Notes: a model not told the origin generated them from the sequence alone. Positions 20,305 to 36,824 are shown, counted from the stretch's first letter. The stretch is 64,000 bases of DNA from Candidatus Anammoxibacter sp. (GCA_021777105.1 JAIQZQ010000001.1:49067-113066), one strand, 5' to 3'. Made by a program: numbers and translations.

Positions 20305-20341
20305 AGATCGCTGTCTAAGCGTTTCAAATAACGATAAACAA

Positions 20342-22290: not shown

Positions 22291-22465
22291 AATGGGGCGC
22301 CATACCGTATGTCAAGCGGATTAATTTTGCCAATTTCTAACGAATGACCCGCCTTTATTTTTAATGTTTATTATATTTTGATTATCCGTTAAAATATTAC
22401 AAACGATGTGATTCAATGGATGTGTTGGTTCAGCGTGAAAATAATATACTTTTAAGGAGTGGACA

Positions 22466-23164: not shown

Positions 23165-23220
23165 GCCACATCAGCATTAAGGGTTCTCTCCGCCCCCCCT
23201 CCCGCCATTTGTAATTTATA

Positions 23221-23492: not shown

Positions 23493-23600
23493 AATTTTTC
23501 CTTTAATTTTTTGTATGAGTGATATTATAGTTGAAAAAAGAGAGCCATGATGCTAAGTTTAAGTCATCACGACTCATATTTGCATCAAAAGGAGGTATGC

Positions 23601-23855: not shown

Positions 23856-24250
23856 GCAAAACCCTTCTCGACACATCCGCATATTCAGCTTTTATGAACG
23901 GAAATGAATCAGTAAAAAAATGGATACAGGAATCAGAAGAGATTTATATTAACCCGATTATTATAGGCGAATTAAAAGCCGGATTTAAAAAAGGCTCTAA
24001 AGAAGAGGAAAATTTAGATCAATTCAACAGATTTATAGAGTCACCCCGTGTAAACGCAATTTCCATAGATGAAGAAACTTCAGAGAGATACGCTATCATT
24101 TTAAACACGCTAAGGAATTCCGGCAAACCTATACCAACCAATGATATCTGGATAGCAGCCTGCGCCATGCAACATGGCCTACGCCTAATCACAACCGACA
24201 AACATTTCAATTATATTCCACAGATAATAGTTGCATACATCTCAAACTAA
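23846..24250 (+). CDS. vapC: PIN-domain toxin VapC
   Basis: LLDTSAY (first acidic residue), ...IGELKAG..., ...IPTNDIWIAACA..., LITTDKHF, about 130 aa. Coupled to the upstream antitoxin. Confidence 0.8.
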   Translation: MGMSKTLLDTSAYSAFMNGNESVKKWIQESEEIYINPIIIGELKAGFKKGSKEEENLDQFNRFIESPRVNAISIDEETSERYAIILNTLRNSGKPIPTNDIWIAACAMQHGLRLITTDKHFNYIPQIIVAYISN

Positions 24251-24290
24251 AACGGTTTAAAAACAAACAGAGCCGTCACTCTCCACCTTA

Positions 24291-24573
24291 TCCGCTTTTG
24301 CTTTTAAAATTAGTGAATATTAGTGAGAATTAGTGGTTAATTTGCTATTGCTTCTTGCTTTTATCCGTGAAAATCCGTGTCATCCGTGTCATCCGTGTCA
24401 CCTGCGTTCCATCGCTTTTGCTTTTACCGATAACCGATTACTGATTACCACTAACCTTGCTTTTGCCTTTTGCTGTTCTTTCGTGGGCATGTTTTTGCTT
24501 TTATCTGTGTAATCAGTGAAATCTGTGGTTGCTTTTGCTTCCACCTATTACTTATTACCGATTACCGAATACA
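24291..24573 (+). repeat. Mosaic intergenic repeat block R3
   Basis: attagtgaatattagtgagaattagtgg, ccgtgaaaatccgtgtcatccgtgtcatccgtgtc, accgataaccgattactgattaccactaacc, gctgttctttcgtgggc, tctgtgtaatcagtgaaatctgtgg and ccgattaccgaataca. Confidence 0.7.
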
Positions 24574-24795
24574 ACTTGAACGTTATTCTATATTTATATC
24601 TATAGTAGCTTATTTAAATACAAGAAATTATGTTTCATCTGAGGCAATACAATATTTAAATTGACAGTAATAAATTTGAAAGCAATAATAATCATACAAC
24701 AATTTATCTTTGCAACACAACCAAATGAATTAAAGACATATCCGTATCAAAAGACCTCAAAATTACAAAGAAAGCCCTTATAAAGGTGGATTTCG

Positions 24796-24990
24796 GTGAC
24801 ATTTAACGAGATTGTAAGATTACTTGAAAAAAACAATTTTAAGATTGTAAAAGAGAAAGGTTCTATTAGATACTACGGGAAAGTTGGTTGCGAAAAGTTA
24901 GTTCGCGTTGATTATCATGGTTCAAAAGAAGTTCCAAAAGGAACTTGCCATTTTATATTGAAATCCGCGGGAATAAGAAAAACTAATTAG
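24796..24990 (+). CDS. hicA: HicA mRNA-interferase toxin
   Basis: 64 aa, GTG start. FNEIVRLLEKNNFKIVKEKGSIRYY...VDYHGSKEVPKGTCHFILKSAGI is typical HicA/YcfA. Confidence 0.75.
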   Translation: MTFNEIVRLLEKNNFKIVKEKGSIRYYGKVGCEKLVRVDYHGSKEVPKGTCHFILKSAGIRKTN

Positions 24991-25001
24991 AAGGAGTTGA
25001 C

Positions 25002-25250
25002 ATGCTGGAACTTGAATATTCACTTATCATTGAAGCAACGGAAGAGCCTGATTATTTTGGGTTTTATTCTCCTGATTTGACCGGTTTTACCGGGATAGGA
25101 CATTCAGTAGAAGATTGTATTTACAAAGCAAAATGGGGAATGATAGAACACATTAATTTATTAAAAGAAAAAGGATTGCCCGTGCCGCCTAAAAGCGCAA
25201 ATCCCAAAATAACCATACAAAACGAAGAGAAATTAGCAATCCATGGTTAG
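25002..25250 (+). CDS. hicB: HicB antitoxin (short, UPF0150 type)
   Basis: YSLIIEATEEPDYFGFYSPDLTGFTGIGHSVEDCIYKAKWGMIEHINLLKEKGLPVP. Lies 11 nt after hicA. Confidence 0.75.
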   Translation: MLELEYSLIIEATEEPDYFGFYSPDLTGFTGIGHSVEDCIYKAKWGMIEHINLLKEKGLPVPPKSANPKITIQNEEKLAIHG

Positions 25251-25280
25251 CCTCCCCCTCTCTTTAGATCAACGTCTATA

Positions 25281-25533
25281 GCTTTTGCTGTTCTTTCGTG
25301 TAATTTCATGTTTTTCGTGGACACGCTTTCGCTTTTAAAATTAGTGAATATTAGTGAGAATTAGTGGTTAATTTGCTCTTGCTTATTGCTTTTATCAGTG
25401 AAAATCCGTGTCATCCGTGTTATCCGTGTTCTATGCTTTTGATTTTGCCAACCGCCAATCGCAAACTGAATCCCACTTTCCGCCTTTCACGCTTTTACCT
25501 CCACCGATTACTTATTACCGATTACCGAATACC
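25281..25533 (+). repeat. Mosaic intergenic repeat block R4
   Basis: Same module order as R3 (gctgttctttcgtg, attagtgaatattagtgagaattagtgg, cagtgaaaatccgtgtcatccgtg, gccaaccgccaatcgcaaactg, ccgattaccgaatacc). Confidence 0.7.
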
Positions 25534-25825
25534 AATGGACACACCTCCCATGAGCAAGCATCCCCCCTTCGCGCCATCACTACAAGACCTTACATTAATT
25601 GTCGCCATCTATAACCAACGTATTAATTACTCACGGATTACAGCATCAAAATATTTGTTTTTAATCATTTATTTCACACCGTAAAGCTTTTTATAATAGC
25701 CTGTCATTTTTATCACGCATATTTTATTCAAGTTTTTTTCTAGACAATAGACAAACAAAGCGCTAAATTTAAACACAAAATTATTTAAAATCCACAAACA
25801 AAAAGCAGATTACACAGATTAAAAG

Positions 25826-25861
25826 CTGAATCAGTCCTGCAGACTGATTCAAAACGTTTTT
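25826..25861 (+). repeat. Hairpin + AAACGTTTT repeat family, copy 2
   Basis: gaatcagtc-ctgca-gactgattc (9-bp stem) followed by aaaacgttttt. Confidence 0.55.
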
Positions 25862-26073
25862 GATTGACTATTACAATTGACCTTAAAACAAAATTTTGAG
25901 CATAAAAATTTATATTTTTTGTAAAAATCAAGGTAAAACCGCAAGCATTTCCTGAAATTATTATGTTTTTTGCAGGAACATCTTGATTAACAAGGATCAG
26001 ATTAAATTTAGAATTAATTTCTAGAGGAATGTTCAAAACAAAAATTCCATGAGCAAAGGGTATGAAAAGTTTA

Positions 26074-26179
26074 TAAATGAACACTTATCAGCTTGTCTGA
26101 TTTAGTGAGAATTATGCCTTGGAGGCTAAATGAACACTTATCAGCTTGTCTGCTATAGTGAGAATTATCCCCTGAGGGG
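26074..26179 (+). repeat. Two abutting copies of a 53-nt structured repeat
   Basis: Unit 1 (26074-26126) is taaatgaacacttatcagcttgtctgatttagtgagaattatgccttggaggc. Unit 2 (26127-26179) is taaatgaacacttatcagcttgtctgctatagtgagaattatcccctgagggg. Further copies at 53772-53824 and 13811-13862, both reverse. Confidence 0.75.
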
Positions 26180-26391
26180 ACAATTTCATCTTTAATTATA
26201 ACAAACGTTGACAGGTTGTTATCCTTAACAATTTTATATGATTTGGGTTAAAAAATTAACAAATTTAAAAACGGATAAGTGATTTTCAGAGTTATAAGGA
26301 ACCTGTAAATCACTTGTTGATAAGCGTTTGGAAGTTAACTTTTTCTAAAACTGTAAAGTTTGTCCAACAAACGGTTAGAAACAGTCGCTGT

Positions 26392-26533
26392 ATGGCGCGT
26401 TCCTCAACCGGGCATTAAATGCAATTACAAGGCCATTACGATTAAATATCTAAGAGCGTTTTACCATGTATACAGTCGAGGCAACGCAAGAGAAAATGTT
26501 TTCAATTGGGAACGATATAAAGCAAATTTTTAG
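26392..26533 (+). pseudogene. Remnant of an IS200/RayT-like Y1 transposase N-terminus
   Basis: ATG-GCG-CGT (MAR) is followed by a frame change, then ...AFYHVYSRGNARENVF...* in another frame. This matches the N-terminal (I)YHVxSRG motif of the intact gene at 32695. Only about 45 codons remain. Confidence 0.45.
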
Positions 26534-26628
26534 TAACGTTACAGAAAAGTTTTTGATAAGTTGAAAATATAAAAATTAAATACTTTATAATTGAGATATG
26601 ACTCTAATGTTTTTCAGGAGACTAGCCA

Positions 26629-29406
26629 ATGGAACATAATGAATTGCCAAAGTTCGCAGAACTATTGAAAAATCCCACGAATGAGGAAGACTTGCCAAGT
26701 GATTTTGATGTCGAAACAGAAGCGAAACACCTTGAGGACCTCTGGCAGAAAAACAGAGCGAAACTCTCAAGGTATCACTTCGTGGATTTCATCCATGCTG
26801 GCGGAGCAGGGATGGTTTTCAAGGTTAAAGGGGGGGATATGCCCCAAGCACTAGCAATGAAACTCGCAAGGAGCAAACTTGTCTCCCAATCATCGGATGA
26901 TGTAGCAAAAGCGCTCTCGCCAGTGTCAGAATCCGAGCTTAGGGCGCTCAAACGCCTTTCTCACCCAAATTTAGTTTCACTGTCTGATGCTATTGAAGAC
27001 AAGCGAGGCATTGTGGGAATTGTCACGAGTCTTGTAGAGGAACCAAGGAATATACACGACTACATCGGAGAGGTTCTCCCTAAGCCTCCTCCGGAATCTA
27101 GTCCACTTGATCCCAGACGAATAGACCGCGCTTGTGAGTATGTTCTTGAGCGTTTTAAAGAAATTGCATCGGTTTTAAAACACATGCATCACAATGGGGT
27201 CTATCACTTTGACGTAAAGCCTGCTAACATCCTAGTGTCAAAAACCAAAAAGGACGTTTTTCTCACCGACCTTGGTGCATGCGTCATTACCGACGAACTG
27301 GATTTAAGTATTCGACACCGCGTGTACTTCACTTGGACCTATGCCCATTCAGAACTTGTTGACTTGGTGCATGACATTCGCGGCATTTCAGGGGGAGGAC
27401 TTCACTCATCAGCCGAGGTGGATCTCAGTGTTCGCCCTGAAAGATTCGACCTCTTTTCTCTTGGCAAAACCATTCAGGAGGTGCTGGCTGTGATTGAGTT
27501 GGAGTTTCGAGCGAGAAGTCATGCTTCATACCCGTTTCGTTTCTTGCATCTGGTAGCATGCCTGCTGCTTGATGGAAACAATGTCCCTGGCGCTTCCTAC
27601 GAGAAGTGGTATGAAGCAATCAAACAAGACGGTCGCACTTTTGCAAGCAACTGTGCTATGAACTACCCCGCAAAGCTTTTTGTGAAACACAAGATTCTAT
27701 CAGCAGGTGATCTCTGTGAGAGGCTTGATAGATTCGCTAATGGGATACCTTGGCAAGATAGTCTGCCGGAGCTCTCTCCTTGGTGCCCAGAAGGCCTTAA
27801 CAGTGTTATACACTCGCCTGCGCCCTTCACGCGACGTGTGTCAAAAACAGTTAACCATCCAATTTTTCAACGCCTCAAGAGGGTAAAGCACTTGGGTTGG
27901 ATGGACGAGGTCTACCCCGGAGCTACACATAACAGATGGACACACTCAATCGGCTCTTTTTCAGCCGTCGTTTCCTACATAGGTGCTCTACTTTTGGATC
28001 CAGAGGTACCAACCTTCCGGCTCCTGGCATCAGAAGATGATATCCGTCACACCTTGGTTGCGGCGCTGATCCATGATCTTGGACAAACTCCTTTTGGCCA
28101 CGATCTTGAGGAAGTAGCCCCGTTTCTCTATGACCACTCTGAAACCGTTGAGCGCCTCCTTCATGACAAGAGATGGGCCAAACCTACACTAGCAGAGAAT
28201 ATCAAGGCAGAATGGGATGTAGACATCGACAGGATTCTATGCATACTGAGAAACGGTAGAAAAAGTGGTAGGTTATCGCCTAAACACGAGGAGGACTTGC
28301 ACACCAGTGCAGTTGATGGCGTCGCTACTGACTGCATCGACGGCCCCATGGATGCGGATAAGCTAGATTACTTGATTCGAGACTCAGTCGCCTGTGGTGT
28401 TCCGTACGGTCACGGAATTGATGCGACCAGACTTCTCAAGTCTCTTACCGTTACAGCACGGCTTGATCCTAACTATGGAGCAAGGCTATCGCTTGCTTAC
28501 AAAGCTAAGGGCAGACCAGCCGTTGTTTCCCTATTACTTGCTCGGTACCAGATGTATGGATCTGTATATTGGCATCACACGTACCGATGCATTCAGACAA
28601 TGTTCTCGCGTGTAGCGGCTGACACCTTTCATGGACTGGACATATCAAGCCGAGAACTGAATGGCATAATGCTATACAAAAGTAGATTGAAGACCCTTTT
28701 CTATGACAGGGTTATCTTTGGCATTCCGTGGAATAAGTGTAGTGAACTCACAAAGTATAAGGCGAACAAGATGAATGCAGTGTTCAACTGCTCAATCCCG
28801 TCCTCGGTAGATCATGAGCCTGTACTTGAATTCATTTGGCGTTTCGCAGATGTAGGAAGTAGAAAGCTTCTTGAAGATCTCGGAGAAAGGCGGCTTTACA
28901 AGCGCGCCTTTGAACTTCGACTTGGGGAACTAGGTGATAGAGCGGACTATTCTGCAATCAGCGCGCATTTCACGCACAGAGAGAGGACGAACACGGCGCG
29001 GAACTTTCAGGATAATTTACTCAACACAATTGACGATCAGATGCGCAAGCACGGATCGACAGACACGGCAGCAGAGCACGAAGCCCGGCTAATCTTGTCG
29101 CAATGGAGGAGTTATTCCGGACCTCTGTTTCTCATAGACTTTCCTTCCCGAGGTGTTCCCGGCCCTGATGTAGACTTTCCTCTTGAGATTGTTGATGCGG
29201 TTCGAAAGTACTTTGTCATGTCTGGACGAGAAGAGGCGTCAGAAGATAACTTCTTCCATTCGGTGCGGACTCTCCAGCAGAAAACGGCAGCTATACGAGT
29301 GTTCTGTCAGCCAGATTTCCACAACGTAGTTGCAAGATACTTGACGCCATCCACAATCCAAAACTGCCTTTCTGAGGTTATCAGTTCTGTACCACCATCA
29401 AGATAG
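26629..29406 (+). CDS. Ser/Thr protein kinase domain fused to a SAMHD1/dGTPase-type HD phosphohydrolase domain, 925 aa
   Basis: Kinase: GGAGMVFKV, AMK, HFDVKPANIL, DLG. HD: HPIFQRLKRVKHLG...PGATHNRWTHSIG, LIHDLGQTPFGHD, DADKLDYLIRD. Confidence 0.85.
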   Translation: MEHNELPKFAELLKNPTNEEDLPSDFDVETEAKHLEDLWQKNRAKLSRYHFVDFIHAGGAGMVFKVKGGDMPQALAMKLARSKLVSQSSDDVAKALSPVSESELRALKRLSHPNLVSLSDAIEDKRGIVGIVTSLVEEPRNIHDYIGEVLPKPPPESSPLDPRRIDRACEYVLERFKEIASVLKHMHHNGVYHFDVKPANILVSKTKKDVFLTDLGACVITDELDLSIRHRVYFTWTYAHSELVDLVHDIRGISGGGLHSSAEVDLSVRPERFDLFSLGKTIQEVLAVIELEFRARSHASYPFRFLHLVACLLLDGNNVPGASYEKWYEAIKQDGRTFASNCAMNYPAKLFVKHKILSAGDLCERLDRFANGIPWQDSLPELSPWCPEGLNSVIHSPAPFTRRVSKTVNHPIFQRLKRVKHLGWMDEVYPGATHNRWTHSIGSFSAVVSYIGALLLDPEVPTFRLLASEDDIRHTLVAALIHDLGQTPFGHDLEEVAPFLYDHSETVERLLHDKRWAKPTLAENIKAEWDVDIDRILCILRNGRKSGRLSPKHEEDLHTSAVDGVATDCIDGPMDADKLDYLIRDSVACGVPYGHGIDATRLLKSLTVTARLDPNYGARLSLAYKAKGRPAVVSLLLARYQMYGSVYWHHTYRCIQTMFSRVAADTFHGLDISSRELNGIMLYKSRLKTLFYDRVIFGIPWNKCSELTKYKANKMNAVFNCSIPSSVDHEPVLEFIWRFADVGSRKLLEDLGERRLYKRAFELRLGELGDRADYSAISAHFTHRERTNTARNFQDNLLNTIDDQMRKHGSTDTAAEHEARLILSQWRSYSGPLFLIDFPSRGVPGPDVDFPLEIVDAVRKYFVMSGREEASEDNFFHSVRTLQQKTAAIRVFCQPDFHNVVARYLTPSTIQNCLSEVISSVPPSR

Positions 29407-29647
29407 GGGCAAGCCTAGGGTCAGATATTAACAGGGCGAAGCTCAGGGTCACATCTTAACAGGGTGTCCGAGAATAGGAGCCGTATTGAATCAGGCGCTA
29501 TATATGGTAAAAATATAAAAAAGAAAACATTTACATACAATTTACAAATTTGGTTTTCGAAACGAAAAGAAGAAATAGACTGAATATCAAAAAATAATAT
29601 TCTATACAATAAGGCTTCTATATATTTAAAGAAAGGTCTAAATAAAT

Positions 29648-32128
29648 ATGAGCGTATTTATAAGTTACAGTCATGACTCAGATGAACATATGAAAAATGT
29701 TTTAGATATTGCAAATCGGCTTCGTTCTGATTATGTAGATTGTGAGTTAGATCAGTATATTGAAAACCCTCCGGAAGGATGGCCTAAATGGATGGACACA
29801 CAAATTAAAAAAGCTATGTATGTTATTGTTGTATGCACAAAGCCATATAATTATAAATTTTCTGCAAACGATCAGGAAAGTATAGGAAAAGGCATTAAGT
29901 GGGAAAGTAGAATATCATATCAACACATTTATGATTTAGGATCTAATAATTATAAATTCATACCTGTAGTATTTTCTAAATCAGATATAGATTATGTGCT
30001 TACGCCTTTAAAAGGAAATACTGTATACCTAATCCCTAATGAATATGAGAAACTCCTACGTCGCCTTTCAGGAAAACCTTCAGTTGAAAAGCCAAACCTT
30101 GGTTTTTCATCAAAAAAAAATCTTTTTTTGACAAAAGATCAGGATTCAAATGTCGCAACAGAAATTGATATGATAGATATAGAATTAGTGATAAAAGAAG
30201 ATTTTGCAAACTTTTCACATGAAAAGGGAAAAGCTTTACTAAACGCCATTAAAGTTTTTCTTGATGCAGATTATGATATAAAAATAAAGAAAAAGCGGGA
30301 AGGCAGCACTTTATTAACTTTAGGATTACAACCAGAAGATGCCGAAAAGCTTTTGTGGGCAGCAAAATCAGGATATTTTGATAACCTTAATGTAGTTGAT
30401 GCAAATATGGTAGAGGTAGAAGCAGGAATGCCTACAAAACTATCAGAATTTAATGTTAAAACAGTTGAAAAAGAAATAAATGAATTCTTTAAAAAACATA
30501 TTGAACAAAAACCACCTAGGAACGAAACGGAAAGATTATTATGCAGTCTTTGGTCGCAAATACTGAAGACTGAAGTCTCCAGTATATTAAGCGATTTCTA
30601 TAAAGTTGGCGGTAATTCAGTATTAGCTATTAAACTAGTTTCTCTCATCCGTAATCGCTTCGGAATTGAAATGCCACTAAGGACATTTTTCGAAAGAACT
30701 ATTTTGTTAGAACAAGCAGAATGGCTTGATAAGCAACCTCCTAGCGCAAAATTGCCACCAGCCGAACCTTTCGTTAATGGTGTGCCATCTGTTTTGTCTT
30801 TTGCTCAACAAAGATTGTTATTCCTAATACAATTGAAAGGGCAAAATGCCGCTTATAATATGCCAATGGCTTTTTATTTACAAGGCCATCTCAATGAAAA
30901 AGCTTTACAGAATGCTTTATCCATTTTAATTAAACGCCACGATAGTTTACGGCTTTGTTTTCCTATTGTTAATGGAGTCACAAAGGCCCAGTTCAAAAAC
31001 GTTTATAACCCACTTACCGTAATTGATCTAAGCGGGTTACCGAAACAGAAACAACAACAACAAGTTACGGAATTGTTAACTAATCACGCCCATGCTTTAT
31101 TTGACTTAAATACTGGCCCTTTACTGAGTGTACAACTTATCAAACTTGGCTGTAAAGATCAGATTTTGTTGTTGAACATACATCAAATTATAAGCGATGA
31201 CTGGTCTACAAGGGTTTTGATTCGAGAATGTAGTCAATTATACAATATTTATGAACAAAATCAGACACCAGAAACGCCAAAACTGTCAGCCAAATATACT
31301 GATTACGTAGTTTGTCAGAGAGATTTGCTACAAGGAGCAGTCGTAAGGAATCAGATAACTTATTGGAAAGGTAAACTCGCTGGCGCATTGGAATTATTAG
31401 AATTACATTCAGATTATCCACGCCCGCCTGTAACGAGCTACCAAGGCAAACATTTGCAGAGTGTTTTAAGTACAGAAATAACACAGGGGCTTAACAGCTT
31501 AAGCAAAAGCCGTAACGTTACATCATTTATGACGTTACTTACGACTTTTAATGTTTTACTATATCGTTACAGTGGACAAACGGACATGCTTGTGGGCAGT
31601 CCTGTTGCGAATAGAACGCTTTGCCAAACCAAGGATTTAGTTGGATTTTTCTCCAATACGTTAATATTGCGAACACAAATTAAAAAAAACCAAACGTTTG
31701 CAAAGTTACTAACACAAGTAAAAAATACAGTTCTTGAGGCGTACAATAACCAGGAAATCCCTTTTGAATATTTGATAGAACAAGTAAAACCTTTTTGGAG
31801 GCTGAAACATGCACCATTGTTTCAGGTTATGTTTATATTATTAGATACACCTAGGGAAACGTTAAAATTTAACAGAATGAAAGTGTCTTTTTTGGAAGCC
31901 GAAAATATTATGACAAAATCTGACTTAACCTTAAAGGCATCTGAACACGAGGGAGTCTTTGTTTGTGATTGGGAATACAACTCGGAATTGTTCCGTGATG
32001 AAACTATCAATCAAATGGTCAAATATTTTCAGGTTTTATTAGAATGGATTCTTAATAATCCTGAACATTCGCTTTCTAAACTACCTTTATTAGAACAAAC
32101 CGAGAGTCAACAGTTAAAAGACTTTTAA
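29648..32128 (+). CDS. SEFIR/TIR-like domain + NRPS-type carrier (T) + condensation (C) domain protein, 826 aa
   Basis: N-terminus VFISYSHDSDEH...YVIVVCTKPY. Carrier FYKVGGNSVLAIKL. C-domain motifs LSFAQQRL, RHDSLRLCF, IHQIISDDWS, YTDYVV, VGFFSNTLILR and NQEIPFE. Markedly AT-rich (about 28-36% GC in sampled stretches). Confidence 0.8.
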   Translation: MSVFISYSHDSDEHMKNVLDIANRLRSDYVDCELDQYIENPPEGWPKWMDTQIKKAMYVIVVCTKPYNYKFSANDQESIGKGIKWESRISYQHIYDLGSNNYKFIPVVFSKSDIDYVLTPLKGNTVYLIPNEYEKLLRRLSGKPSVEKPNLGFSSKKNLFLTKDQDSNVATEIDMIDIELVIKEDFANFSHEKGKALLNAIKVFLDADYDIKIKKKREGSTLLTLGLQPEDAEKLLWAAKSGYFDNLNVVDANMVEVEAGMPTKLSEFNVKTVEKEINEFFKKHIEQKPPRNETERLLCSLWSQILKTEVSSILSDFYKVGGNSVLAIKLVSLIRNRFGIEMPLRTFFERTILLEQAEWLDKQPPSAKLPPAEPFVNGVPSVLSFAQQRLLFLIQLKGQNAAYNMPMAFYLQGHLNEKALQNALSILIKRHDSLRLCFPIVNGVTKAQFKNVYNPLTVIDLSGLPKQKQQQQVTELLTNHAHALFDLNTGPLLSVQLIKLGCKDQILLLNIHQIISDDWSTRVLIRECSQLYNIYEQNQTPETPKLSAKYTDYVVCQRDLLQGAVVRNQITYWKGKLAGALELLELHSDYPRPPVTSYQGKHLQSVLSTEITQGLNSLSKSRNVTSFMTLLTTFNVLLYRYSGQTDMLVGSPVANRTLCQTKDLVGFFSNTLILRTQIKKNQTFAKLLTQVKNTVLEAYNNQEIPFEYLIEQVKPFWRLKHAPLFQVMFILLDTPRETLKFNRMKVSFLEAENIMTKSDLTLKASEHEGVFVCDWEYNSELFRDETINQMVKYFQVLLEWILNNPEHSLSKLPLLEQTESQQLKDF

Positions 32129-32579
32129 CAAAGAAAACGGAAGAAAACCACCAAGGTCACATCTAAAAAATAAAGTATTGATGTAACGTATCAAAGGGCG
32201 AAGCGTAACAGTTAAGCTGCCTACGCCAAACTAAGGGCCTGCGCATAGATAATTTGGTTTACCCGCTCTTAGGTTTTGAATAAATTTGGGCAATCTGATT
32301 GAAACGAACCGGTAGCGGAGCCTAAGCCGTATTGAAGATTCAGCGATTGATGATAGTTCAAAGTTGGCCTGAAAATATATATGAAGAGTCCGAGTTATTT
32401 GTTCGTAGGAAACCTAAGATGTATTGAGTAACGATTTGGTAATGTTATGCAGTTGGTTATCCGGGGTTGTTAAAATATTTTGTAGAAAATGTATAAGACT
32501 TTTGCCTTTTAATTTACAAGTTTCAAGGACTGAGCAAATAATTGAGTAGTTATGCGCTCCATGAGAGCTTCTGTTTCCG

Positions 32580-33864
32580 AAAATAAGGGACAGGTTTATT
32601 TTTATGGCAATATTTGAATAAATTATGTATAATTCGCGCGTTAGAGATTTTTGGGGTTAGTTTTTCTTAACTATCTGATTTTGTGAGGGTTAAAATGGCA
32701 AGGATACCACGATTGATGCTTAAAAGCGAAGAGGGGATATATCATGTTATGTCGCGTACAGCTCTGGAGGGGTTTGTTTTAGGGGATGTCGAGAAAGATT
32801 ATTTGTTTGGCTTGATTAAGCGATTTAGCGGGATATTTTTTGCGGAAATTTTTGGGTATTGTATTATGGGCAATCATTTTCATCTGTTGGTTAAGATGGG
32901 GCAGTCTGATGATTATACTGATGATGAGATAAAAATGCGCATAGGCCGATATAATAGCGATAAGGACAAGGTTGTGACTAATGGGGAAGTCCCCTATTTT
33001 CGCGACAAATTCTCTAATCTGTCTGAATTTATGCGCGAGATAAAACAGAGGTTTTCACGTTTTTACAATAAACGGCATGAAAGGAGAGGCTATTTCTGGG
33101 GAGACAGGTTTAAAAGCGTTATTGTTGAAAAAGGGGATACTTTGATAAATTTGCTTGCGTATATTGATTTGAACCCTTTAAGGGCAGGGTTGGCAAGTCG
33201 GCCCGAGAATTACAGGTGGTGTTCGATAGGTTATCATGCGCAGACGGGCAATCGGGACGGTTTGCTTTCAACTAATTTTGGATTGATTGATTATGAAGCG
33301 ATGTCTGAACAGGAGAGATTGACGGACTACAGGGAGTTTTTGTATGAAAAAGGGGCAATTGAACCTGAAAAAGGGGCGACTATAAATGAAACTATAATGA
33401 AAACCGAACGCGCGGGCAAGTACAAGTTAACGGAGATAGACCGATTTAGATACAAAACGAGATATTTTACAGACAGTGGCATAATCGGCACAAAAGCTTT
33501 TGTTCGCCGTCACTTTGAGCATTTTAAAGATCATTTCAACACGAAGAAAACAAAAATCCCAAAAGAGGTAACCGGCTGCAAGGACATTTATTCGCTTAAA
33601 AATTTATCAAGCTGATTCATTAAATGCTTAATCTCAAATCCTCTACGATCAGCTATGTGCATCTTGTAAACCTGCCACATTACAATCCATTTTCCCTTCT
33701 TATATCCGACAATTATCAATTCTCCTCGTAAATGCATCATGTATATTTTCCCTTGAGCAGTCAAAATACACCAACAAAAAGCGCTACATCAATTTTTTGA
33801 AAATTATCTCACAAAACGAAAGAAATTGTTAATTTAGCTATAAAATAAACCTGCCCCCTATTTT
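32580..33864 (+). mobile_element. REPtron/IS200-like unit: Y1 transposase gene flanked by inverted hairpin repeats
   Basis: Left aaaataagggacaggtttattttta (32580-32604) versus the reverse complement of right aaaataaacctgccccctatttt (33842-33864), about 24/30 matching. Each arm is itself a small hairpin (aaaataa...ttatttt). Confidence 0.5.
32695..33615 (+). CDS. IS200/IS605-family Y1 (HUH) transposase, RayT-like
   Basis: MARIPR...GIYHVMSRT, HUH motif GNHFHLLV, AYIDLNPLRAGL and ENYRWCS. ATG at 32695 is preferred over the GTG at 32683. Confidence 0.8.
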   Translation: MARIPRLMLKSEEGIYHVMSRTALEGFVLGDVEKDYLFGLIKRFSGIFFAEIFGYCIMGNHFHLLVKMGQSDDYTDDEIKMRIGRYNSDKDKVVTNGEVPYFRDKFSNLSEFMREIKQRFSRFYNKRHERRGYFWGDRFKSVIVEKGDTLINLLAYIDLNPLRAGLASRPENYRWCSIGYHAQTGNRDGLLSTNFGLIDYEAMSEQERLTDYREFLYEKGAIEPEKGATINETIMKTERAGKYKLTEIDRFRYKTRYFTDSGIIGTKAFVRRHFEHFKDHFNTKKTKIPKEVTGCKDIYSLKNLSS

Positions 33865-34042
33865 GTCCCTATTCTATTTTTTCTCTATCATAAACCAATA
33901 TGAGCAAATCCGTTGAATAAATGCATATTTTTACCCTATAATTTCTATTGTGTTTTTGATAGTATAAAATGGCATTGCGGCAGTATGCCTGTTTGGTAAT
34001 TGTAACAATTTGTTTTTACTTAAAAGTTAAAAAGGATGCGAT

Positions 34043-34261
34043 GTGAATAAATATATTACAATTGATCCACAAATTTGCAATGGCAAGCCTGTGATTGCTG
34101 GGACAAGAATACCTGTAACTGTTATTTTGGACCAACTGGCTGATTGTAGATCAATTGAAAAGGTTATAGATAAATACCCGGAATTATCCACAGATCATGT
34201 AGTCGCGGTATTGCAATATTGCAACTCGGTTATTGAACATACCGAGCTTGAGGTTGCTTGA
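34043..34261 (+). CDS. DUF433 antitoxin-like protein
   Basis: ITIDPQICNGKPVIAGTRIPVTVILDQLADCRSIEKVIDKYPELSTDHVVAVLQY matches the DUF433 consensus. Confidence 0.7.
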   Translation: MNKYITIDPQICNGKPVIAGTRIPVTVILDQLADCRSIEKVIDKYPELSTDHVVAVLQYCNSVIEHTELEVA

Positions 34262-34277
34262 GGAACCATAAAAGCGT

Positions 34278-34626
34278 TTGTTTCTTGACCAAATGATAGA
34301 CCGTGATGTTAAAACAGCTTTACAAGACATCGACGTCGAAAGCGCGGTTGATGTAGATATGCCAAAGGCTGATGATATTGAAATACTTAACTATTGCGTT
34401 TCTGTTAAAAGAACGCTGTAACACTGGATGAACATTTCGGTGATTGGACGTTCCTGCGTTTAAACAGACATCCCGGCGTTATTCGGCTTAAAGCGCGCCC
34501 TACCACAACGCATAATATAAAGAATCTTTTGCTTCCATTTATACGCAAAAACAAGTTTCAAAGATTTGAAAATTACTTAGTGGCTGCGACAAGCGCATTT
34601 CCAATTAAAAGCAAAGGAGGTATTTA
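34278..34626 (+). pseudogene. DUF5615 (PIN-like/Mut7-C) toxin partner, frameshifted
   Basis: TTG-start frame gives FLDQMIDRDVKTALQDIDVESAV...DDIEILNYCVSVKRTL, then a stop at 34419. Another frame continues TLDEHFGDWTFLRLNRHPGVIRLK. Together these reconstruct a DUF5615-length protein of about 115 aa. Confidence 0.55.
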
Positions 34627-34899
34627 ATGGATAACGATAACAGTGATAAAGAATTAAAATATATAGTTGTTTGCGGAGGAGACGGATGCTCGTCATTTGG
34701 CGGGCGAGTAATACGTGATCAAATTGAAAATGCAATTAAAGACAATGGATACGAAGAACAGATAGAAATTAAAGACTCCATATGCAATAGCCTTTGCTTT
34801 CAAGGCCCTATTGTAAAAACAGGCCCGAAAAACAGAACATATAAAGATGTCACACAAGATGACATTCCAACAATAATTAATAAAACCCTGGAAGATTAA
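34627..34899 (+). CDS. Thioredoxin-like [2Fe-2S] ferredoxin-domain protein
   Basis: IVVCGGDGCSSFGG...DSICNSLCFQGPIV gives two Cys pairs in the typical spacing. aaaggagg RBS. Confidence 0.5.
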   Translation: MDNDNSDKELKYIVVCGGDGCSSFGGRVIRDQIENAIKDNGYEEQIEIKDSICNSLCFQGPIVKTGPKNRTYKDVTQDDIPTIINKTLED

Positions 34900-34953
34900 G
34901 CCGGGAAAACCAAAGGACTGGTCTTAATTATTACGAATTGTAATCCCAAAGCA

Positions 34954-34986
34954 AAAACGTTTTGAAGCAGTCGACAAGACTGATCC
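34954..34986 (-). repeat. Hairpin + AAACGTTTT repeat family, copy 3 (reverse orientation)
   Basis: aaaacgttttgaagcagtcgacaagactgatcc. Confidence 0.5.
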
Positions 34987-35073
34987 AGATTTTAATTTTG
35001 TTTTTTCACTTTTAATCAATGTAATCTGTGGTTAATGAGCTTTTCCGGGTTATCCGGGTTAGGAATAATAAAC

Positions 35074-35487
35074 ATGATTAAACTCTATATTAAAAGCAAA
35101 AACTTTATTTTATTGATAGCATTTTTTGCTATAATTGCCGGCTCTAACATAGGGAGCTATGAAGCATCACAGGTTAAAAAGGCTCCCCCAGCCACGCCAA
35201 CGACCACAAACGTAAGCGGGAGGACGTTTATAGGCGATCCTTCCACGGCCAAGTTTGTAATAGGTTGCGAAGGGTGTTCTAATCCCGGGGAATTTTCTTT
35301 CTTAAAAGGCGGCAGTGTATGTTATGCCTTTCCAGGGAGCGATGAAGAGGATTGCGATCAATACACACAGGAAGGGCTTTTAATAACATTTAAAAGAGAG
35401 GCCGCAACGTTTACAGTATCAGAAGATGGGTGGGCAATTCGAGATGAATATGGAACTATATATCGGGATAAAGAATATGGATGTTAG
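35074..35487 (+). CDS. Hypothetical exported protein (Cys-containing)
   Basis: MIKLYIKSKNFILLIAFFAIIAGS looks like a signal or anchor. The track ORF start (35035) lies inside repeat DNA, so ATG at 35074 is preferred. Confidence 0.4.
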   Translation: MIKLYIKSKNFILLIAFFAIIAGSNIGSYEASQVKKAPPATPTTTNVSGRTFIGDPSTAKFVIGCEGCSNPGEFSFLKGGSVCYAFPGSDEEDCDQYTQEGLLITFKREAATFTVSEDGWAIRDEYGTIYRDKEYGC

Positions 35488-35611
35488 TTATAATGTAACG
35501 GATGCTCTTTACCTCTAAAATCAAGAATCGTTAATCCTTATTTTTAAATCGCTTTTAGCCAAAAAGGCCTTTTTAATTGTCATTGGTTTTAAAATGAATC
35601 ATAAAAAGGGT

Positions 35612-35947
35612 GGCTAAAGCCCATAGGTGTTAGGTTAAGATTTAAATATACGCCGCCTGTAAATGATTAAATCGCCCTTTCAGGGCTGATATTGCATATT
35701 ATATTCAAACCCAGGGCGTTGCCCTGGGCTATATTAACCCCGCCCTTTCAGGGCTACCTACGTTTTAACGTATTGATAAAAAAATATACAATTTCAAGCC
35801 CCAACGGTGCGGCTTTAATATAGCCTGGGGCATCGCCCCAGGTATTAAATGTTATTTTAATTTAGCCTTGAAAGGGCGATTTAAGCTCTTACGCTCTGTT
35901 TCTGATGTTTGGAGCTAAAGCTTAACCTAACACCTATGGGCTAAAGC
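35612..35947. repeat. ~335-bp nested imperfect palindrome (MITE-like or structured RNA)
   Basis: Outer arms are agcccataggtgttaggttaag (35618-35639) and cttaacctaacacctatgggct (35921-35942). Middle arms are aaatcgccctttcagggct (35669-35687) and agccttgaaagggcgattt (35864-35882). Inner hairpins are cccagggcgttgccctggg and cctggggcatcgccccagg. Confidence 0.65.
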
Positions 35948-36254
35948 AGTCCCCACCCCGCTATTCAGCGTAAAATTTACACACCCCGTCCGCAATTCAG
36001 CGGCCACGCCTCTTTTTAAAGGGGATTCACGCAATTTCAAACCTTTCACCATGACAATCAGGCAATTTGAGAGGTCAACCGGCTTTGTGTATAAAAATCT
36101 GAACTAAATAAATGCCTTTTTATTCACGAGAATAATAATGATTTTGCCTGTCAAGTGTAGTAAAATCGTGAAATAATAAATGTAGAGGCTACAACTAATT
36201 GCCAATTTAAGGGCACGGAAAGAGATAACTTCAATTTTTCAAACAGGAAACGTC

Positions 36255-36824
36255 ATGGCTCTCAAGGCTGAAAAGATCAAAATAATGATAAGGGAACTGG
36301 AAGAGGTCGCCCTTAAAATCCTTGCGGACCTTGTGGCGTATCAGATTAAAACAGGGCCTTATAACAAAAGCCCGGGCGAAAACTATATAGCCGCCGAGAA
36401 TTCCACCGCCGAATACGTTGCCGAAAACTTTGAGAACATAAAGGAGTTTAAAGAGCACATGGAAAAACAGGGCAAAGGAATTGAAGCTATTCAGGCCCTG
36501 GCAAAGAAGATATACGATAACTACTTTACAGGCCGGATGAATTTTACCGAGGTTAAAAACAAGATTAGCGCTAAAAAAGATATAACTTTAAAGGCCATCA
36601 CGGATATGGTGGCCTACAAGATATCGCAAAGCAGCGATGATAAAGGCCCTGAGATAAACTATCTGGTTGCGGAAACGTTTGTGGCCCAATATATTTCAAA
36701 GAATTTTAAGAATATGGAAGCGTTTAAATCAATGATAAAGACTTTGGACAACAGCATAAAGGGGATTGAAGCTTTCTCTGACCTGATTTACGGCAAATAT
36801 TGCCAGGCTCAAAACGCAAGGTAA
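36255..36824 (+). CDS. Hypothetical protein with an internal ~90-aa duplication
   Basis: DLVAYQIKTGPYNKSPGENYIAAE...NFENIKEFKEHM...GIEAIQALAKKIYDNY versus DMVAYKISQSSDDKGPEINYLVAE...NFKNMEAFKSMI...GIEAFSDLIYGKY. Confidence 0.45.
   Translation: MALKAEKIKIMIRELEEVALKILADLVAYQIKTGPYNKSPGENYIAAENSTAEYVAENFENIKEFKEHMEKQGKGIEAIQALAKKIYDNYFTGRMNFTEVKNKISAKKDITLKAITDMVAYKISQSSDDKGPEINYLVAETFVAQYISKNFKNMEAFKSMIKTLDNSIKGIEAFSDLIYGKYCQAQNAR

Follow-up and report, generated by a model that had tools for sequence, protein, structure and literature searches.

Organization of the locus

Two large co-oriented open reading frames, gene 1 (925 aa) and gene 2 (826 aa), lie in the 64-kb stretch of Candidatus Anammoxibacter sp. 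DNA that was analysed (the window) and are separated by 241 bp, as had been originally predicted (Table 1). They are part of a low-GC variable island, which is bordered by hisS/aspS (18332–21616, minus strand) on one side and by an FHA-trypsin gene (36920) on the other, and which also contains an array of toxin-antitoxin (TA) cassettes, a RayT-type transposase unit and a DUF433/DUF5615 pair. VapB/VapC and HicA/HicB were found upstream of the two genes and DUF433 downstream, so that the proposed placement of TA cassettes on both sides largely held, but the DUF5615 partner of the downstream pair is only a truncated 47-aa fragment (E = 0.0017; profile positions 4–51 of 110).

Table 1 Features of the island and of the two genes located in it (positions are those of the window)
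Feature	Position	Strand	Description
Low-GC variable island	21700–36000	.	GC 0.28–0.41 outside gene 1
Tandem 53-nt repeats (two)	26074–26179	+	Two short hairpins each
57-codon ORF	26360–26533	+	YHVYSRGNARENVF motif; possible Y1 transposase N-terminus remnant, motif-level
Imperfect inverted repeat, left arm	26579–26615	.	37 nt; pairs with 32143–32179, 76% complementary
Gene 1	26629–29406	+	Ser/Thr kinase, SAMHD1/EF1143-type HD dNTP triphosphohydrolase, C-terminal HD-associated region
Kinase catalytic core of gene 1	26794–27276	+	G-loop HAGGAG (56–61), Lys78, Glu103, HFDVKPAN (193–200), DLG (214–216)
HD dNTPase active-site motifs of gene 1	27925–28383	+	H439, H482-D483 (HDLG), DADKLDYLIRD (575–585)
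Direct repeats AGGGTCAsATmTTAACAGGG (two)	29417–29464	+	20 nt each, 28 nt apart, from 11 nt after the gene 1 stop codon
Gene 2	29648–32128	+	Chimera: SEFIR, TRADD-N-like, T (PCP), C (condensation)
SEFIR domain of gene 2	29651–30097	+	TIR-like; putative NADase effector
TRADD-N-like domain of gene 2	30164–30421	+	Adaptor; GS motif at 219–220
Orphan NRPS fragment of gene 2	30503–32128	+	A-T linker, T (Ser324 in GGNS), C with HQIISDD (512–518); ends 15 residues into the C-A linker
Imperfect inverted repeat, right arm	32143–32179	.	37 nt; 15 nt after the gene 2 stop codon
RayT-type Y1 (HUH) transposase unit	32580–33864	+	ORF 32683–33615 within 23-nt inverted repeats

The profile of GC content and codon usage confirmed the sharp compositional break between the two genes (GC of 0.479 in gene 1 vs 0.342 in gene 2, with 0.29–0.33 in the first 800 nt of the latter), but gene 1 is not the outlier: the AT-rich parts are gene 2 and the whole surrounding island of about 14 kb. 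The backbone genes of the window have a GC content of 0.41–0.50 and a GC3 of 0.39–0.57, and the GC3 of gene 1 (0.468) is backbone-like. Gene 2 itself is internally mosaic, with a GC3 of 0.19 in the SEFIR part (first 290 codons) vs 0.31–0.32 in the part carrying the T and C domains. In codon usage (RSCU), gene 1 lies at a distance of 0.44 and gene 2 at 0.57 from the backbone, whose own genes average 0.38 ± 0.08. These differences in GC3 and RSCU suggest separate origins of gene 1, the SEFIR part and the T-C part.

Gene 1 encodes a kinase fused to an HD dNTPase

The identification of gene 1 as a kinase-HD protein was borne out by Pfam, with matches to Pkinase (9e-17; residues 50–244; 61.7 bits, cut-off 31.7), HD (459–513) and HD_assoc_2 (3e-11; 597–677). 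All hallmarks of Hanks-type Ser/Thr kinases are present (G-loop, VAIK Lys, αC Glu, HxDxKxxN and DFG-type Asp), and the second half carries both the HD metal ligands and the DxDKxDYxxRD motif characteristic of SAMHD1/dGTPase enzymes. Among 28 family members of 23–49% identity, the kinase residues G58, G59, K78, E103, H193, D195, K197, N200, D214 and G216 are invariant, as are H439, H482, D483, D575, D577, K578, D580, Y581, R584 and D585 of the HD half. Both enzymatic halves have kept their catalytic residues intact.

A profile of the gene 1 family matched the solved dNTPases 2hek (6.3e-42), EF1143 2o6i (1.5e-36), 2q14 (2.7e-33) and SAMHD1 (~1e-21), and PknB-type kinases as well. At the same time, gene 1 did not reach the curated anti-phage dGTPase models, the PADLOC dGTPase model giving 23.6 bits over 64 residues and NCBIfam antiphage_dGTPase giving 15.3 bits vs a cut-off of 400, and no PADLOC or NCBIfam defence model covered its full length. 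The likeness to SAMHD1, EF1143 and the bacterial dGTPases used in defence (10.1101/2021.04.26.441389; PMC13519002) thus consists of the HD fold, the H...HD...D ligands, the DxDKxDYxxRD motif and the profile matches, whereas the N-terminal Hanks-type kinase, an extra C-terminal region of about 225 aa and scores far under the thresholds of the curated models set gene 1 apart. A 2026 survey of dGTPase fusions listed SAM, NLR, TIR, CARD, death and SIR2 domains, with no kinase among them.

The kinase domain matched the PD-T4-6, MkoA and mad6 models (1e-9 to 1e-16); in the case of PD-T4-6, a single-gene defensive Ser/Thr kinase, the match covers only the generic kinase core. Stk2 is another single-gene defensive Ser/Thr kinase. 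The defensive dCTP deaminase also joins a nucleotide-depleting enzyme to a kinase-type domain on which defence depends (preprint 10.1101/2021.04.26.441389), but its partner is a nucleotide-kinase-like domain rather than a protein kinase, and, unlike gene 1, neither this deaminase nor the defensive Ser/Thr kinases have an HD domain.

The search for homologs of gene 1 gave 95 proteins, 92 of which are full-length kinase-HD proteins or fragments of such, from Acidobacteriota, Planctomycetota, Competibacteraceae, Methanoregula and Thorarchaeota. The family counts at least 92 members, and its distribution is patchy, the best match being only 49% identical. The relatives are lone genes in variable, mobile or defence-rich surroundings, with different neighbours at every locus examined, in a small and mostly metagenomic sample of about 10 relatives with >5 kb of annotated flank. 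Locus L174 has integrases, ThyA, a RecD-like helicase, a TIR protein and an LmuA-like protein nearby; L003 has ThsB_TIR with 8xMP, a Cas4-like protein and a YhcG nuclease; L177 has an integrase and two Y1 transposases; and HicAB, PIN, DUF5615 and patatin genes are located near the relatives at other loci. Eight loci had called genes as well as sequence downstream of the kinase-HD gene; at six of them the following gene is encoded on the opposite strand, and the same-strand genes at the other two are a Y1 transposase (L177) and a TIR gene (L174). A TIR-superfamily gene lies ≤2 kb from the kinase-HD gene at 3 of the 11 loci with annotated neighbours, the window included.

Gene 2 is a SEFIR protein with a TRADD-N-like domain and an orphan NRPS fragment

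The domains proposed for gene 2 were all found by Pfam (SEFIR/TIR_2, PP-binding and Condensation), and the complete order is SEFIR (residues 2–150), TRADD-N-like (173–258) and T-C (286–826). The original label SEFIR-T-C nevertheless misleads if it is taken to mean a designed NAD-targeting NRPS enzyme: the protein is composed of a SEFIR and TRADD-N-like part and of an orphan fragment from the interior of an NRPS, the active site of which is altered. No listed match in the billion-protein databases had this architecture, with the exception of P0358, an independent SEFIR-TRADD-N-C-A-T fusion with a different junction and a C domain of another lineage (36% identity), which suggests that fusion to NRPS modules recurs and is tolerated.

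SEFIR is a better description of the N-terminal domain than TIR, the Pfam matches within residues 2–140 being 4.1e-14 for SEFIR vs 9.3e-9 for TIR_2. The PADLOC bSEFIR model matched with 9.6e-48, aligned only over profile positions 40–263 of 412. Up to P106, 26 columns are invariant between gene 2 and nine relatives, and the invariant core includes F4, S6, Y7, S8, D10, S11, H14, D35, PPEGWP (41–46), W48, G80, G82 and E86. Most relatives are 355–370 aa long, and their similarity to gene 2 is confined to the first ~150 residues. The modules following the SEFIR N-terminus are very diverse: the 65 long relatives contain 92 Pfam families, among them STAND/TPR, S1 and sigma-70. SEFIR proteins act as single-gene defences that deplete NAD+ (10.1101/2022.05.11.491447; NAD+ depletion according to 10.1101/2024.02.11.579819). 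The similarity to the bSEFIR system (Millman et al. 2022) concerns the N-terminal domain with the conserved core of the family, the single polypeptide and the location of relatives beside TA and defence genes; the difference is that the usual C-terminal domain of ~210 aa in proteins of ~360 aa is replaced in gene 2 by the TRADD-N-like and NRPS T-C parts.

The TRADD-N-like region had no match of its own to Pfam TRADD-like_N (PF20694), which was matched by the 44%-identical stretch of the homolog P0216 (27.6 bits, cut-off 23.7). The AlphaFold2 model of residues 173–258, built with 23 sequences, had a pLDDT of 87.9 and a predicted RRM-like β-α-β-β-α-β order (E4–13, H19–33, E41–45, E48–55, H57–68, E77–83). 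G219 and S220 (G47 and S48 in the alignment) are invariant in the 23 sequences and lie in the β2-β3 turn, where a conserved tiny residue plus Ser marks the bacterial TRADD-N domains (Kaur et al. 2021, PMC8195603). A Foldseek search of the model against the PDB gave no match at E ≤ 0.001, and the top 50 hits were generic ferredoxin-like structures, none described as TRADD. The layout of effector, TRADD-N and variable C-terminus, the predicted adaptor fold and the G-S turn are shared with the bacterial TRADD-N proteins, for which the order TIR, TRADD-N and variable C-terminus was described, with repeats, STAND, caspase, PAS, GUN4 and HTH as C-terminal partners and SEFIR unmentioned as effector (PMC8195603). 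In gene 2 and its relatives, by contrast, this place is taken by NRPS modules, S1 repeats, sigma-70 regions, a sugar transferase and a starch-synthase domain; the domains found after the TRADD-N-like domain in relatives were S1, sigma-70, GerE, Bac_transf, GT5, NRPS or pentapeptide-TIR. At its own locus, P0216 is a lone gene, with BrnTA and RES-Xre as neighbours.

The NRPS homology detected by tblastn starts at 30503 and ends at 32125, and five NRPS proteins used as queries matched nothing in the window outside 30503–32131, neither an A domain nor partner modules. The closest relatives (52–58% identity) are A-T-C-A stretches from the interior of multimodular NRPSs, and the T-C part is thus an internal piece of such an NRPS captured at domain linkers, which makes gene 2 chimeric in origin. 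Like the T-C didomain of LCL-type elongation modules, it keeps the phosphopantetheine Ser of GGxS (GGNS, 321–324; Pfam PP-binding 2e-10) and most C core positions, but it is placed behind an immune effector and lacks the active-site motif HHxxxDG, having HQIISDD instead, while all 111 aligned relatives (112 sequences) keep the second His. Of 51 near-invariant C-domain columns, 5 are changed vs a median of 1. Loss of C-domain activity is likely but not certain, because a C domain with HQxxxDM is catalytically active in streptothricin biosynthesis (PMC11546977). The T-C module could also simply be decaying cargo.

Repeats and transposase sequences around the genes

The RayT-type transposase downstream of gene 2 is intact, as predicted. 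Its ORF (310 aa) matched Pfam Y1_Tnp (7e-10, 39.5 bits, cut-off 23), and both the HUH motif GNHFHLLV and the tyrosine motif YIDLNP can be read in the translation. The predicted inverted ends are also present (32580–32602 and 33842–33864, 23 nt, 91% complementary), but the two arms fold no better than shuffled sequences, and the ends are therefore an inverted-repeat pair rather than hairpins. The HUH and Tyr motifs, the flanking inverted repeats and the match to the NCBIfam model of REP-associated tyrosine transposases (REP_Tyr_transpos, 1e-16) are shared with REPtron/RayT elements, from which this unit differs in its size, about twice the model length, and in its score of 61 bits, below the cut-off of 80. 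No dispersed REP family is visible in the window, since the 21-nt end sequence of the unit occurs only at its own two ends. The transposase is homologous (E = 6e-13) to the Y1 transposases beside the kinase-HD relative in L177.

The decayed Y1 transposase N-terminus postulated upstream of gene 1 (26392–26533) could not be upheld beyond a motif-level resemblance: the ORF had no Pfam or NCBIfam match even at E ≤ 10, and its best BLAST alignment with the N-terminus of the local RayT (YHVxSR motif) had E = 0.32. The two structured repeats predicted further upstream are indeed tandem (units of 48–53 nt at 26074 and 26127, 92% identical, chance expectation 0.00), and their 3' hairpins differ by compensatory changes (GCCT/AGGC vs CCCC/GGGG); only the first unit, however, folded better than its shuffles (z = −3.3), the second giving z = −1.2.

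The 37-nt imperfect inverted repeat brackets exactly genes 1 and 2, and its core GTCAyATCT recurs after both stop codons; as the pattern was built from these very copies, its statistics carry little weight. The two direct repeats after gene 1 (two matches, 0.00 expected) lie immediately before the fall in GC content. The inverted repeat and the shared core hint that the two genes have a cassette history in common or are regulated jointly.

Occurrence of the two genes in other genomes

The two genes had been put forward as a candidate defence-like module. The pairing was examined at 23 loci with a relative spanning both the kinase and the HD domain, 21 of them by tblastn and two (L177 and L178) by their listed Pfam annotations only. 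No match to SEFIR, TRADD-N, T or C was obtained by tblastn at any of the 21 loci, and the Pfam lists of the other two had no SEFIR or NRPS neighbour. Apart from four loci fetched via SEFIR relatives and the NRPS locus L168, none of the 176 fetched loci gave a SEFIR, TRADD-N, T or C match. Conversely, the kinase-HD gene was absent beside the nearest SEFIR-TRADD-N relatives, P0216 and P0358 (two loci, four fetched contigs). Conserved pairing of genes 1 and 2 is therefore lacking, and in the sample drawn their homologs never co-localized elsewhere. The 241-bp spacer contains neither a terminator-like site nor a sigma-70-like promoter on the plus strand, so co-transcription of the two genes is possible.

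Discussion

The locus is probably best explained as an insertion hotspot, within an AT-rich variable island next to hisS/aspS, that holds two anti-phage candidates, each a single gene independent of the other, rather than as a two-gene system; the separate origins suggested by GC3 and codon usage count towards this explanation. The mobile, TA-rich context of both genes agrees well with the mosaic hotspot originally envisaged.

That the pair could still be a module, in which one protein has a sensing or signalling part and the other carries out the response, or in which dNTPs and NAD+ are both depleted under common control, seems quite improbable. The same orientation, the short distance without a predicted terminator, and the 3' motif and inverted repeat around the pair speak for such a module, as do the TIR-domain genes located ≤2 kb from two distant kinase-HD relatives, in L174 immediately downstream on the same strand. 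However, these TIR proteins are not orthologs of gene 2 (BLAST E = 0.015 vs the SEFIR part), the TIR of L174 is C-terminal and resembles ThsB, that of L003 has an 8xMP partner of its own, and both sit in generic defence islands, while all eight annotated loci of the close clade (42–49% identity) have no TIR gene at all. The absence of SEFIR or NRPS neighbours from all 23 kinase-HD loci and of kinase-HD neighbours from the SEFIR-TRADD-N relatives, the sharp difference in composition and the lack of a recognizable signal-binding domain in gene 1 also argue against joint action. The abortive-infection logic originally proposed for the pair, or a logic of depletion, is plausible for each gene alone, as a SAMHD1-type dNTPase and as a bSEFIR-type NADase domain, while a joint module found no such support.

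Each gene taken singly has its own competing explanation. It is unlikely, but distinctly less so than a joint module, that gene 1 has no immune role and is a regulated housekeeping enzyme of the dNTP pool or of nucleotide signalling, the kinase coupling dNTP hydrolysis to the growth state. Its backbone-like GC and GC3 fit such a role, as do relatives among metabolic genes in L002 (acetyl-CoA synthetase, glycosyltransferases), L084 (alanine racemase) and L082 (arginine metabolism); for many bacterial homologs of dGTPase/SAMHD1 no role in defence is known, and the preprint 10.1101/2021.04.26.441389 notes that defence islands show no enrichment of dgt homologs. The family is, however, patchy across taxa and without conserved synteny, its members recur beside integrases, Y1 transposases, TA modules and defence genes, and gene 1 forms a compositionally discrete 2.8-kb block within the AT-rich TA island. 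Marginally less doubtful is the view of gene 2 as a non-functional relic, an accidental in-frame junction between a SEFIR-TRADD-N gene and a stranded NRPS fragment that arose by rearrangement in the hotspot and is now decaying. The fragment is an orphan, with neither an A domain nor further NRPS DNA in the window, its key His has been substituted along with other near-invariant positions, a compositional seam runs through the gene, the architecture was seen in no listed match, and broken genes are found around it (the truncated DUF5615, a frameshifted aspartyl-protease-like ORF and the possible Y1 remnant). Against decay, the frame of 826 codons is open in DNA of only 34% GC, the breakpoints fall in the A-T and C-A linkers outside the domains, 46 of the 51 near-invariant C-domain positions and Ser324 of the T domain are kept, the SEFIR core residues are all retained, and the independent fusion in P0358 suggests that such partners are tolerated.

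According to the explanation by two independent genes, several independent units would have accumulated side by side in the island next to hisS/aspS. While the domain identities of both genes, their intact catalytic residues, the chimeric make-up of gene 2, the absence of a conserved pairing and the mobile, TA-rich surroundings are clear from the sequences, we infer their defence function, the triggers, and the roles of the kinase and of the T-C module. Gene 1 would be a self-contained single-gene unit, composed of a Hanks-type Ser/Thr kinase and a SAMHD1/EF1143-type dNTP triphosphohydrolase, in which the HD domain may empty the dNTP pool and so block phage DNA synthesis, and in which the kinase may gate the HD domain, either through autophosphorylation or in response to a cue of infection. 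Phosphorylation exerts a similar control over human SAMHD1. Gene 2 would be a separate single-protein unit of the class with a SEFIR/TIR effector, TRADD-N and a variable C-terminus, with the SEFIR domain as a putative NAD+-cleaving effector, the TRADD-N domain as a possible switch and the T-C didomain presumably acting in sensing or regulation rather than in biosynthesis. Each of the two genes represents a previously undescribed form, built on known types of protein.

Results

Organization and composition of the region

The two large ORFs, located on the same strand and separated by 241 bp, were found as predicted. Gene 1 encodes a kinase-HD protein, and gene 2 encodes a protein with SEFIR, TRADD-N-like, T (PCP) and C (condensation) parts. 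The sharp compositional break between them was also confirmed, but it has to be interpreted in the opposite sense: gene 1 is backbone-like, whereas gene 2 and the surrounding island are AT-rich. In the flanking chromosome (aspS and hisS, together with the large genes of the 40–63 kb stretch), GC was 0.41–0.50 and GC3 was 0.39–0.57, and the corresponding values were 0.479 and 0.468 for gene 1 and 0.342 and 0.271 for gene 2. Codon usage, compared as the RSCU (synonymous codons) distance to backbone genes, gave a mean of 0.38 ± 0.08 for the backbone itself, whose highest value was 0.52; gene 2 (0.57) fell outside this range, and gene 1 (0.44) fell inside it, being less typical than size-matched backbone genes (0.24–0.34). 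The high-GC block corresponded approximately to gene 1 plus about 60 bp, and gene 1 reads as a discrete single-gene block within the AT-rich island adjoining hisS/aspS. A further seam was located inside gene 2, with a GC3 of 0.19 for residues 1–290 against 0.31–0.32 for the T and C parts. The mosaic hotspot reading was borne out. The genes differ in compositional origin, and the island is rich in both toxin-antitoxin (TA) genes and AT.

Coordinates of the features discussed (window positions unless a locus is named)
Feature	Position	Strand	Remarks
Low-GC island	21.7–36 kb		Between hisS/aspS and the FHA-trypsin gene; GC 0.28–0.41 without gene 1
~45-nt palindromic repeat	21951–21995, 25818–25878, 63185–63229	+	…CAGTCyTGCAGACTG…AAAACGTTTTTG
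~45-nt palindromic repeat, opposite copy	34936–34996	-	
TA cassette array	22100–25620		DUF5678 with frameshifted aspartyl-protease-like ORF; FitA/VapB-VapC; HicA-HicB
TA-array repeat core	22173, 23235, 23406, 24359, 25390		TTTTATCmGTGAAAATCCGTGTCATCCG
Tandem 53-nt repeats	26074, 26127		
Y1-like stretch	26360–26533		YHVYSRGN...
37-nt inverted repeat (76%)	26579–26615 / 32143–32179		
Gene 1	26629–29406	+	925 aa; Pfam: Pkinase 50–244, HD 459–513, HD_assoc_2 597–677
Two 20-nt direct repeats	29417–29464		After the gene 1 stop
Gene 2	29648–32128	+	826 aa; Pfam: SEFIR/TIR_2 2–140, PP-binding 297–358, Condensation 383–823
Start of NRPS homology	30503		Residue ~286, A-T linker; runs to the gene 2 stop codon
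Spacer after gene 2	32130–32580		Folding no better than shuffles (z -0.2)
RayT unit	32580–33864		310-aa Y1 transposase at 32683–33615
189-aa repeat-containing ORF	36255–36824		Precedes the FHA-trypsin gene
FHA-trypsin gene	36920–38326		468 aa; right edge of the island
Integrative element, locus L174	1–12100		Carries kinase-HD homolog P0076
TIR, 8xMP and Cas4-like region, locus L003	7726–8664		Methanoregula MAG
SEFIR-TRADD-N-C-A-T gene, locus L166	10001–14095		GCA_977880235.1, 8.8-Mb contig

Flanking repeats, mobile DNA and TA cassettes

The tandem 53-nt repeats upstream of gene 1 are real. The decayed Y1-transposase N-terminus proposed beside them showed a motif-level likeness only: neither Pfam and NCBIfam nor BLASTP and BLASTX comparisons with four Y1 transposases gave a significant match. 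Downstream, the RayT transposase with a 23-nt inverted repeat was confirmed, its ends being an inverted-repeat pair and not the hairpins originally described. The VapBC, HicAB and DUF433 cassettes were present as well, the DUF5615 partner being a 47-aa stump. No structured RNA was detected by Rfam at the gathering threshold in the whole window or at E ≤ 1 in 25.6–34.1 kb, and the group-II-intron-like strings “GAGCCGTAT” in both spacers were dropped as a first impression.

A 61-nt inverted repeat (25818–25878 / 34936–34996) considered as the island boundary proved to consist of copies of a scattered 45-nt palindromic repeat (at least four in the window), which resembles a bidirectional terminator or REP-like element; two oppositely oriented copies happen to flank 25.8–35.0 kb. 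The three TA cassettes of ~1 kb are each preceded by a 150–300-bp repeat with an invariant core, a layout resembling a cassette array. The exact HisS protein search used for strain comparison yielded no more than two short contigs, which belong to the same organism. Both were 100% identical, and these short-read contigs end inside the first repeat copy of the TA array, so they are uninformative on the island. At the opposite edge, a hydrophobic segment is predicted between the FHA domain and the trypsin-like peptidase that make up the FHA-trypsin fusion.

The kinase-HD family of gene 1

The search with gene 1 provided 95 homologs (best, 49% identical), 92 of which were full-length kinase-HD proteins or fragments thereof, from Acidobacteriota, Planctomycetota, Competibacteraceae, Methanoregula, Thorarchaeota and others. 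In the alignment of 28 members (23–49% identity), the kinase residues G58, G59, K78, E103, H193, D195, K197, N200, D214 and G216 were invariant, as were the HD residues H439, H482, D483 and D575–D585 (DADKLDYLIRD). The family profile matched solved dNTP triphosphohydrolases (2hek, 6e-42; EF1143, 1.5e-36; SAMHD1, ~1e-21). PADLOC returned only generic kinase models for gene 1, plus a weak dGTPase match, and the family was not found among the PADLOC and NCBIfam defence models.

The neighbourhoods of the relatives differed. The kinase-HD gene stood alone among unrelated neighbours, with the next gene on the opposite strand, in L081, L082 and L084 (HicAB and Uma2 in L082), and was surrounded by ordinary metabolic genes in L002. 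Nearby genes encoded a PIN domain (L171), DUF5615 (L172), or Patatin, Metallophos and HTH_3-M78 (L173), and L177 carried a tyrosine integrase with two Y1 transposases homologous to RayT (E 6e-13). In L174 (32% identity), the relative lies in an integrative element with two tyrosine recombinases, thymidylate synthase (ThyA) and a RecD-like helicase, followed by a protein whose C-terminus carries a ThsB-like TIR domain and by an LmuA-like protein; this element has the appearance of a compact, mobile defence island. In L003 (28% identity), a ThsB-type TIR gene, directly followed by an 8xMP octameric-membrane-protein gene and then a Cas4-like nuclease gene, lies upstream of the archaeal homolog, and a YhcG nuclease lies downstream; the TIR and 8xMP genes may be a TIR plus membrane-effector pair.

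With the four parts of gene 2 (SEFIR, TRADD-N, T and C) as tblastn queries, no matches were obtained in 171 loci. The scan comprised 176 loci, of which five matched and were set aside: four SEFIR-relative loci (L166, L167, L169, L170) and L168, an NRPS locus. Relatives spanning both the kinase and HD domains are present in 21 of the 171. L177 and L178 were covered by their Pfam lists alone, which show no SEFIR or NRPS neighbour. The kinase-HD family thus resembles a single-gene cargo, patchy in its distribution, of regions that are variable, mobile and rich in defence genes, and it has no fixed partner.

Architecture of gene 2

PADLOC recognized bSEFIR in the first 285 residues of gene 2 (9.6e-48), covering only profile positions 40–263 of 412. 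Among 1.84 billion representative proteins, 6597 SEFIR relatives were found; the close ones are mostly bSEFIR-type proteins of ~360 aa, common to gene 2 only over the first ~150 residues, and a subset additionally matches residues ~173–258. The counterpart of this segment in P0216, the nearest relative and a lone gene adjoining BrnTA and RES-Xre, is 44% identical to gene 2 and matched Pfam TRADD-like_N with 27.6 bits (cut-off 23.7). A G-S pair was invariant in 23 aligned TRADD-N-like segments, and the AlphaFold model (pLDDT 87.9) placed it in the beta2-beta3 turn of a beta-alpha-beta-beta-alpha-beta fold, the same fold order and motif position as in the TRADD-N signature of Kaur et al. (PMC8195603). 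The PDB sequence search with the TRADD-N profile gave nothing significant, and Foldseek returned only generic ferredoxin-like matches, which leaves sequence and motif as the basis of the assignment.

Since tblastn puts the start of the NRPS homology at nt 30503 and the residues before it align with the post-TRADD linker of P0323, the fusion junction was assigned to the A-T linker. An A10 motif remnant upstream of the T domain, where MAFFT paired NVKTVEKEI with NGKIDRKAL, was rejected as contradicted by this start. Gene 2 stops 15 residues into the C-A linker, where relatives go on with “...WNxT..DYP” into the A domain. The nearest T-C relatives (52–58% identity) come from the interior of multimodular NRPSs, and no other NRPS-like sequence was found in the 64-kb window. 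A stand-alone T-C family suggested by P0098 (573 aa) was discarded, because the locus shows this protein to be one part of a multimodular NRPS broken by a frameshift.

The T-domain serine is retained (GGNS, S324). The C-domain motif reads HQIISDD, the second His being kept in 111 of 111 aligned relatives, and 5 of the 51 columns conserved at ≥95% in the C domain are altered against a median of 1. Since a C domain with HQxxxDM is known to be active (PMC11546977), the loss of catalysis is likely, not certain.

Related SEFIR-TRADD-N fusions

SEFIR and NRPS domains did not occur together among the best 120 of 307 matches to the full-length query or the best 120 of 273 to the SEFIR query. The exhaustive representative search revealed one such protein, P0358 (1364 aa; SEFIR-TRADD-N-C-A-T), an orphan NRPS module amid DDE transposases and a Y1 fragment, which deviates at 8 of the 51 conserved C-domain columns. 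Its TRADD-N passes directly into C, unlike the junction in gene 2, and the C domains are only 36% identical; P0358 is an independent NRPS capture. The orphan SEFIR-TRADD-N-C-A-T gene of L166, also found on the Tara scaffold L167, has TSGSTGRPNG as its A3 motif against PKG in four aligned relatives. DDE transposases and a Y1 transposase fragment of 90 aa lie around it, with a gene for Pkinase-TPR and one for an ECF sigma factor close by.

Other SEFIR-TRADD-N proteins end in S1 repeats (P0336, P0343, P0349), sigma-70 regions 1.2-2 (P0342) or region 4 (P0353), a LuxR HTH (P0354), a sugar transferase (Bac_transf; P0338), a starch-synthase GT5 domain (P0345), or pentapeptide plus TIR (P0445). In 65 long SEFIR proteins, 92 Pfam families were counted, STAND/TPR sensors among them. 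The TRADD-N layout is an N-terminal effector such as TIR, then TRADD-N, then a variable C-terminal domain, and C-termini made of housekeeping-type protein pieces lie outside the partner list of that paper (PMC8195603). Gene 2 therefore belongs to an architectural class that is already known, and its C-terminal module is of a new kind.

Discussion

The observation underlying the original prediction was largely right, including the mosaic hotspot, and its two-gene module was unsupported. We consider it fairly probable that the insertion hotspot holds two independent single-gene anti-phage candidates, a kinase-gated dNTPase and a SEFIR-TRADD-N NADase. A true functional pair is quite improbable: homologs of the two genes never co-localised in the loci examined, both families stand alone elsewhere, and the compositional origins differ. 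On the other side, the spacer between the genes has no predicted terminator, two distant kinase-HD relatives have TIR-superfamily neighbours, and the repeats around both ORFs are linked in sequence. The core of the direct repeats after gene 1 (GTCAyATCT) recurs 27 nt past the gene 2 stop, and an inverted copy lies 26 nt ahead of the gene 1 start, so that the 37-nt inverted repeat brackets exactly both ORFs. The statistical backing of this link is weak: seven matches were counted against 2.5 expected, and 2 of 100 shuffles reach 7, with a pattern derived from these very copies. This link at most suggests shared cassette history or shared regulation; the motifs may represent cassette ends or an operator, or may have arisen by chance.

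Regarding each gene separately, gene 1 would act on its own as a kinase-gated, SAMHD1-like dNTPase. That it is instead a non-immune regulator of the dNTP pool is unlikely; the metabolic surroundings in L002 and the defence-like genes in L174 and L003 bear on this question from either side. A defensive dCTP deaminase provides the precedent of a nucleotide-depleting enzyme requiring a fused kinase-like domain (preprint 10.1101/2021.04.26.441389). The 2026 survey of dGTPase fusions covers SAM, NLR, TIR, CARD, death and SIR2 domains and, unlike what is seen in gene 1, never mentions a kinase. No earlier description of a kinase-SAMHD1-type (kinase-HD/dNTPase) fusion was found in the literature searched, nor of SEFIR plus TRADD-N or SEFIR plus NRPS fusions. 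Gene 2 would be a SEFIR-TRADD-N NADase carrying in its sensor slot an NRPS T-C fragment that has been captured and is probably non-catalytic. To a decaying chimera we give a minor though appreciable chance; the altered C-domain columns speak for it and the retained T-domain serine against it.

By analogy with plant NLRs, SEFIR-TRADD-N proteins might be a class of bacterial immune receptors with integrated decoys, gene 2 being the NRPS-decoy member, a proposal that we hold to be doubtful. The C-terminal modules would then be captured, often partial and catalytically altered, copies of host proteins targeted or bound by phages (e.g., sigma-70 region 2 or 4, ribosomal-protein-S1 repeats, sugar/glycogen transferases, NRPS carrier/condensation modules); once the decoy is engaged, the TRADD-N switch would flip and the SEFIR NADase would be set free. 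If so, the two independent NRPS captures would imply that phage biology touches the carrier-protein or condensation machinery.

Rejecting the pairing keeps a spurious “kinase-HD + SEFIR” system out of the catalogues. Gene 1 represents a testable lead; its family is widespread, counting at least 92 members in bacteria and archaea, and joins a eukaryote-like protein kinase to a SAMHD1-like dNTPase. Phosphorylation-gated nucleotide depletion has so far been known mainly from human SAMHD1, and gene 1, if anti-phage, would offer a compact model of it. Gene 2 reveals a SEFIR-TRADD-N sub-class whose C-terminal “sensor” slot holds pieces of housekeeping or secondary-metabolism proteins, which bears on how single-protein TIR/SEFIR defences recognise infection.
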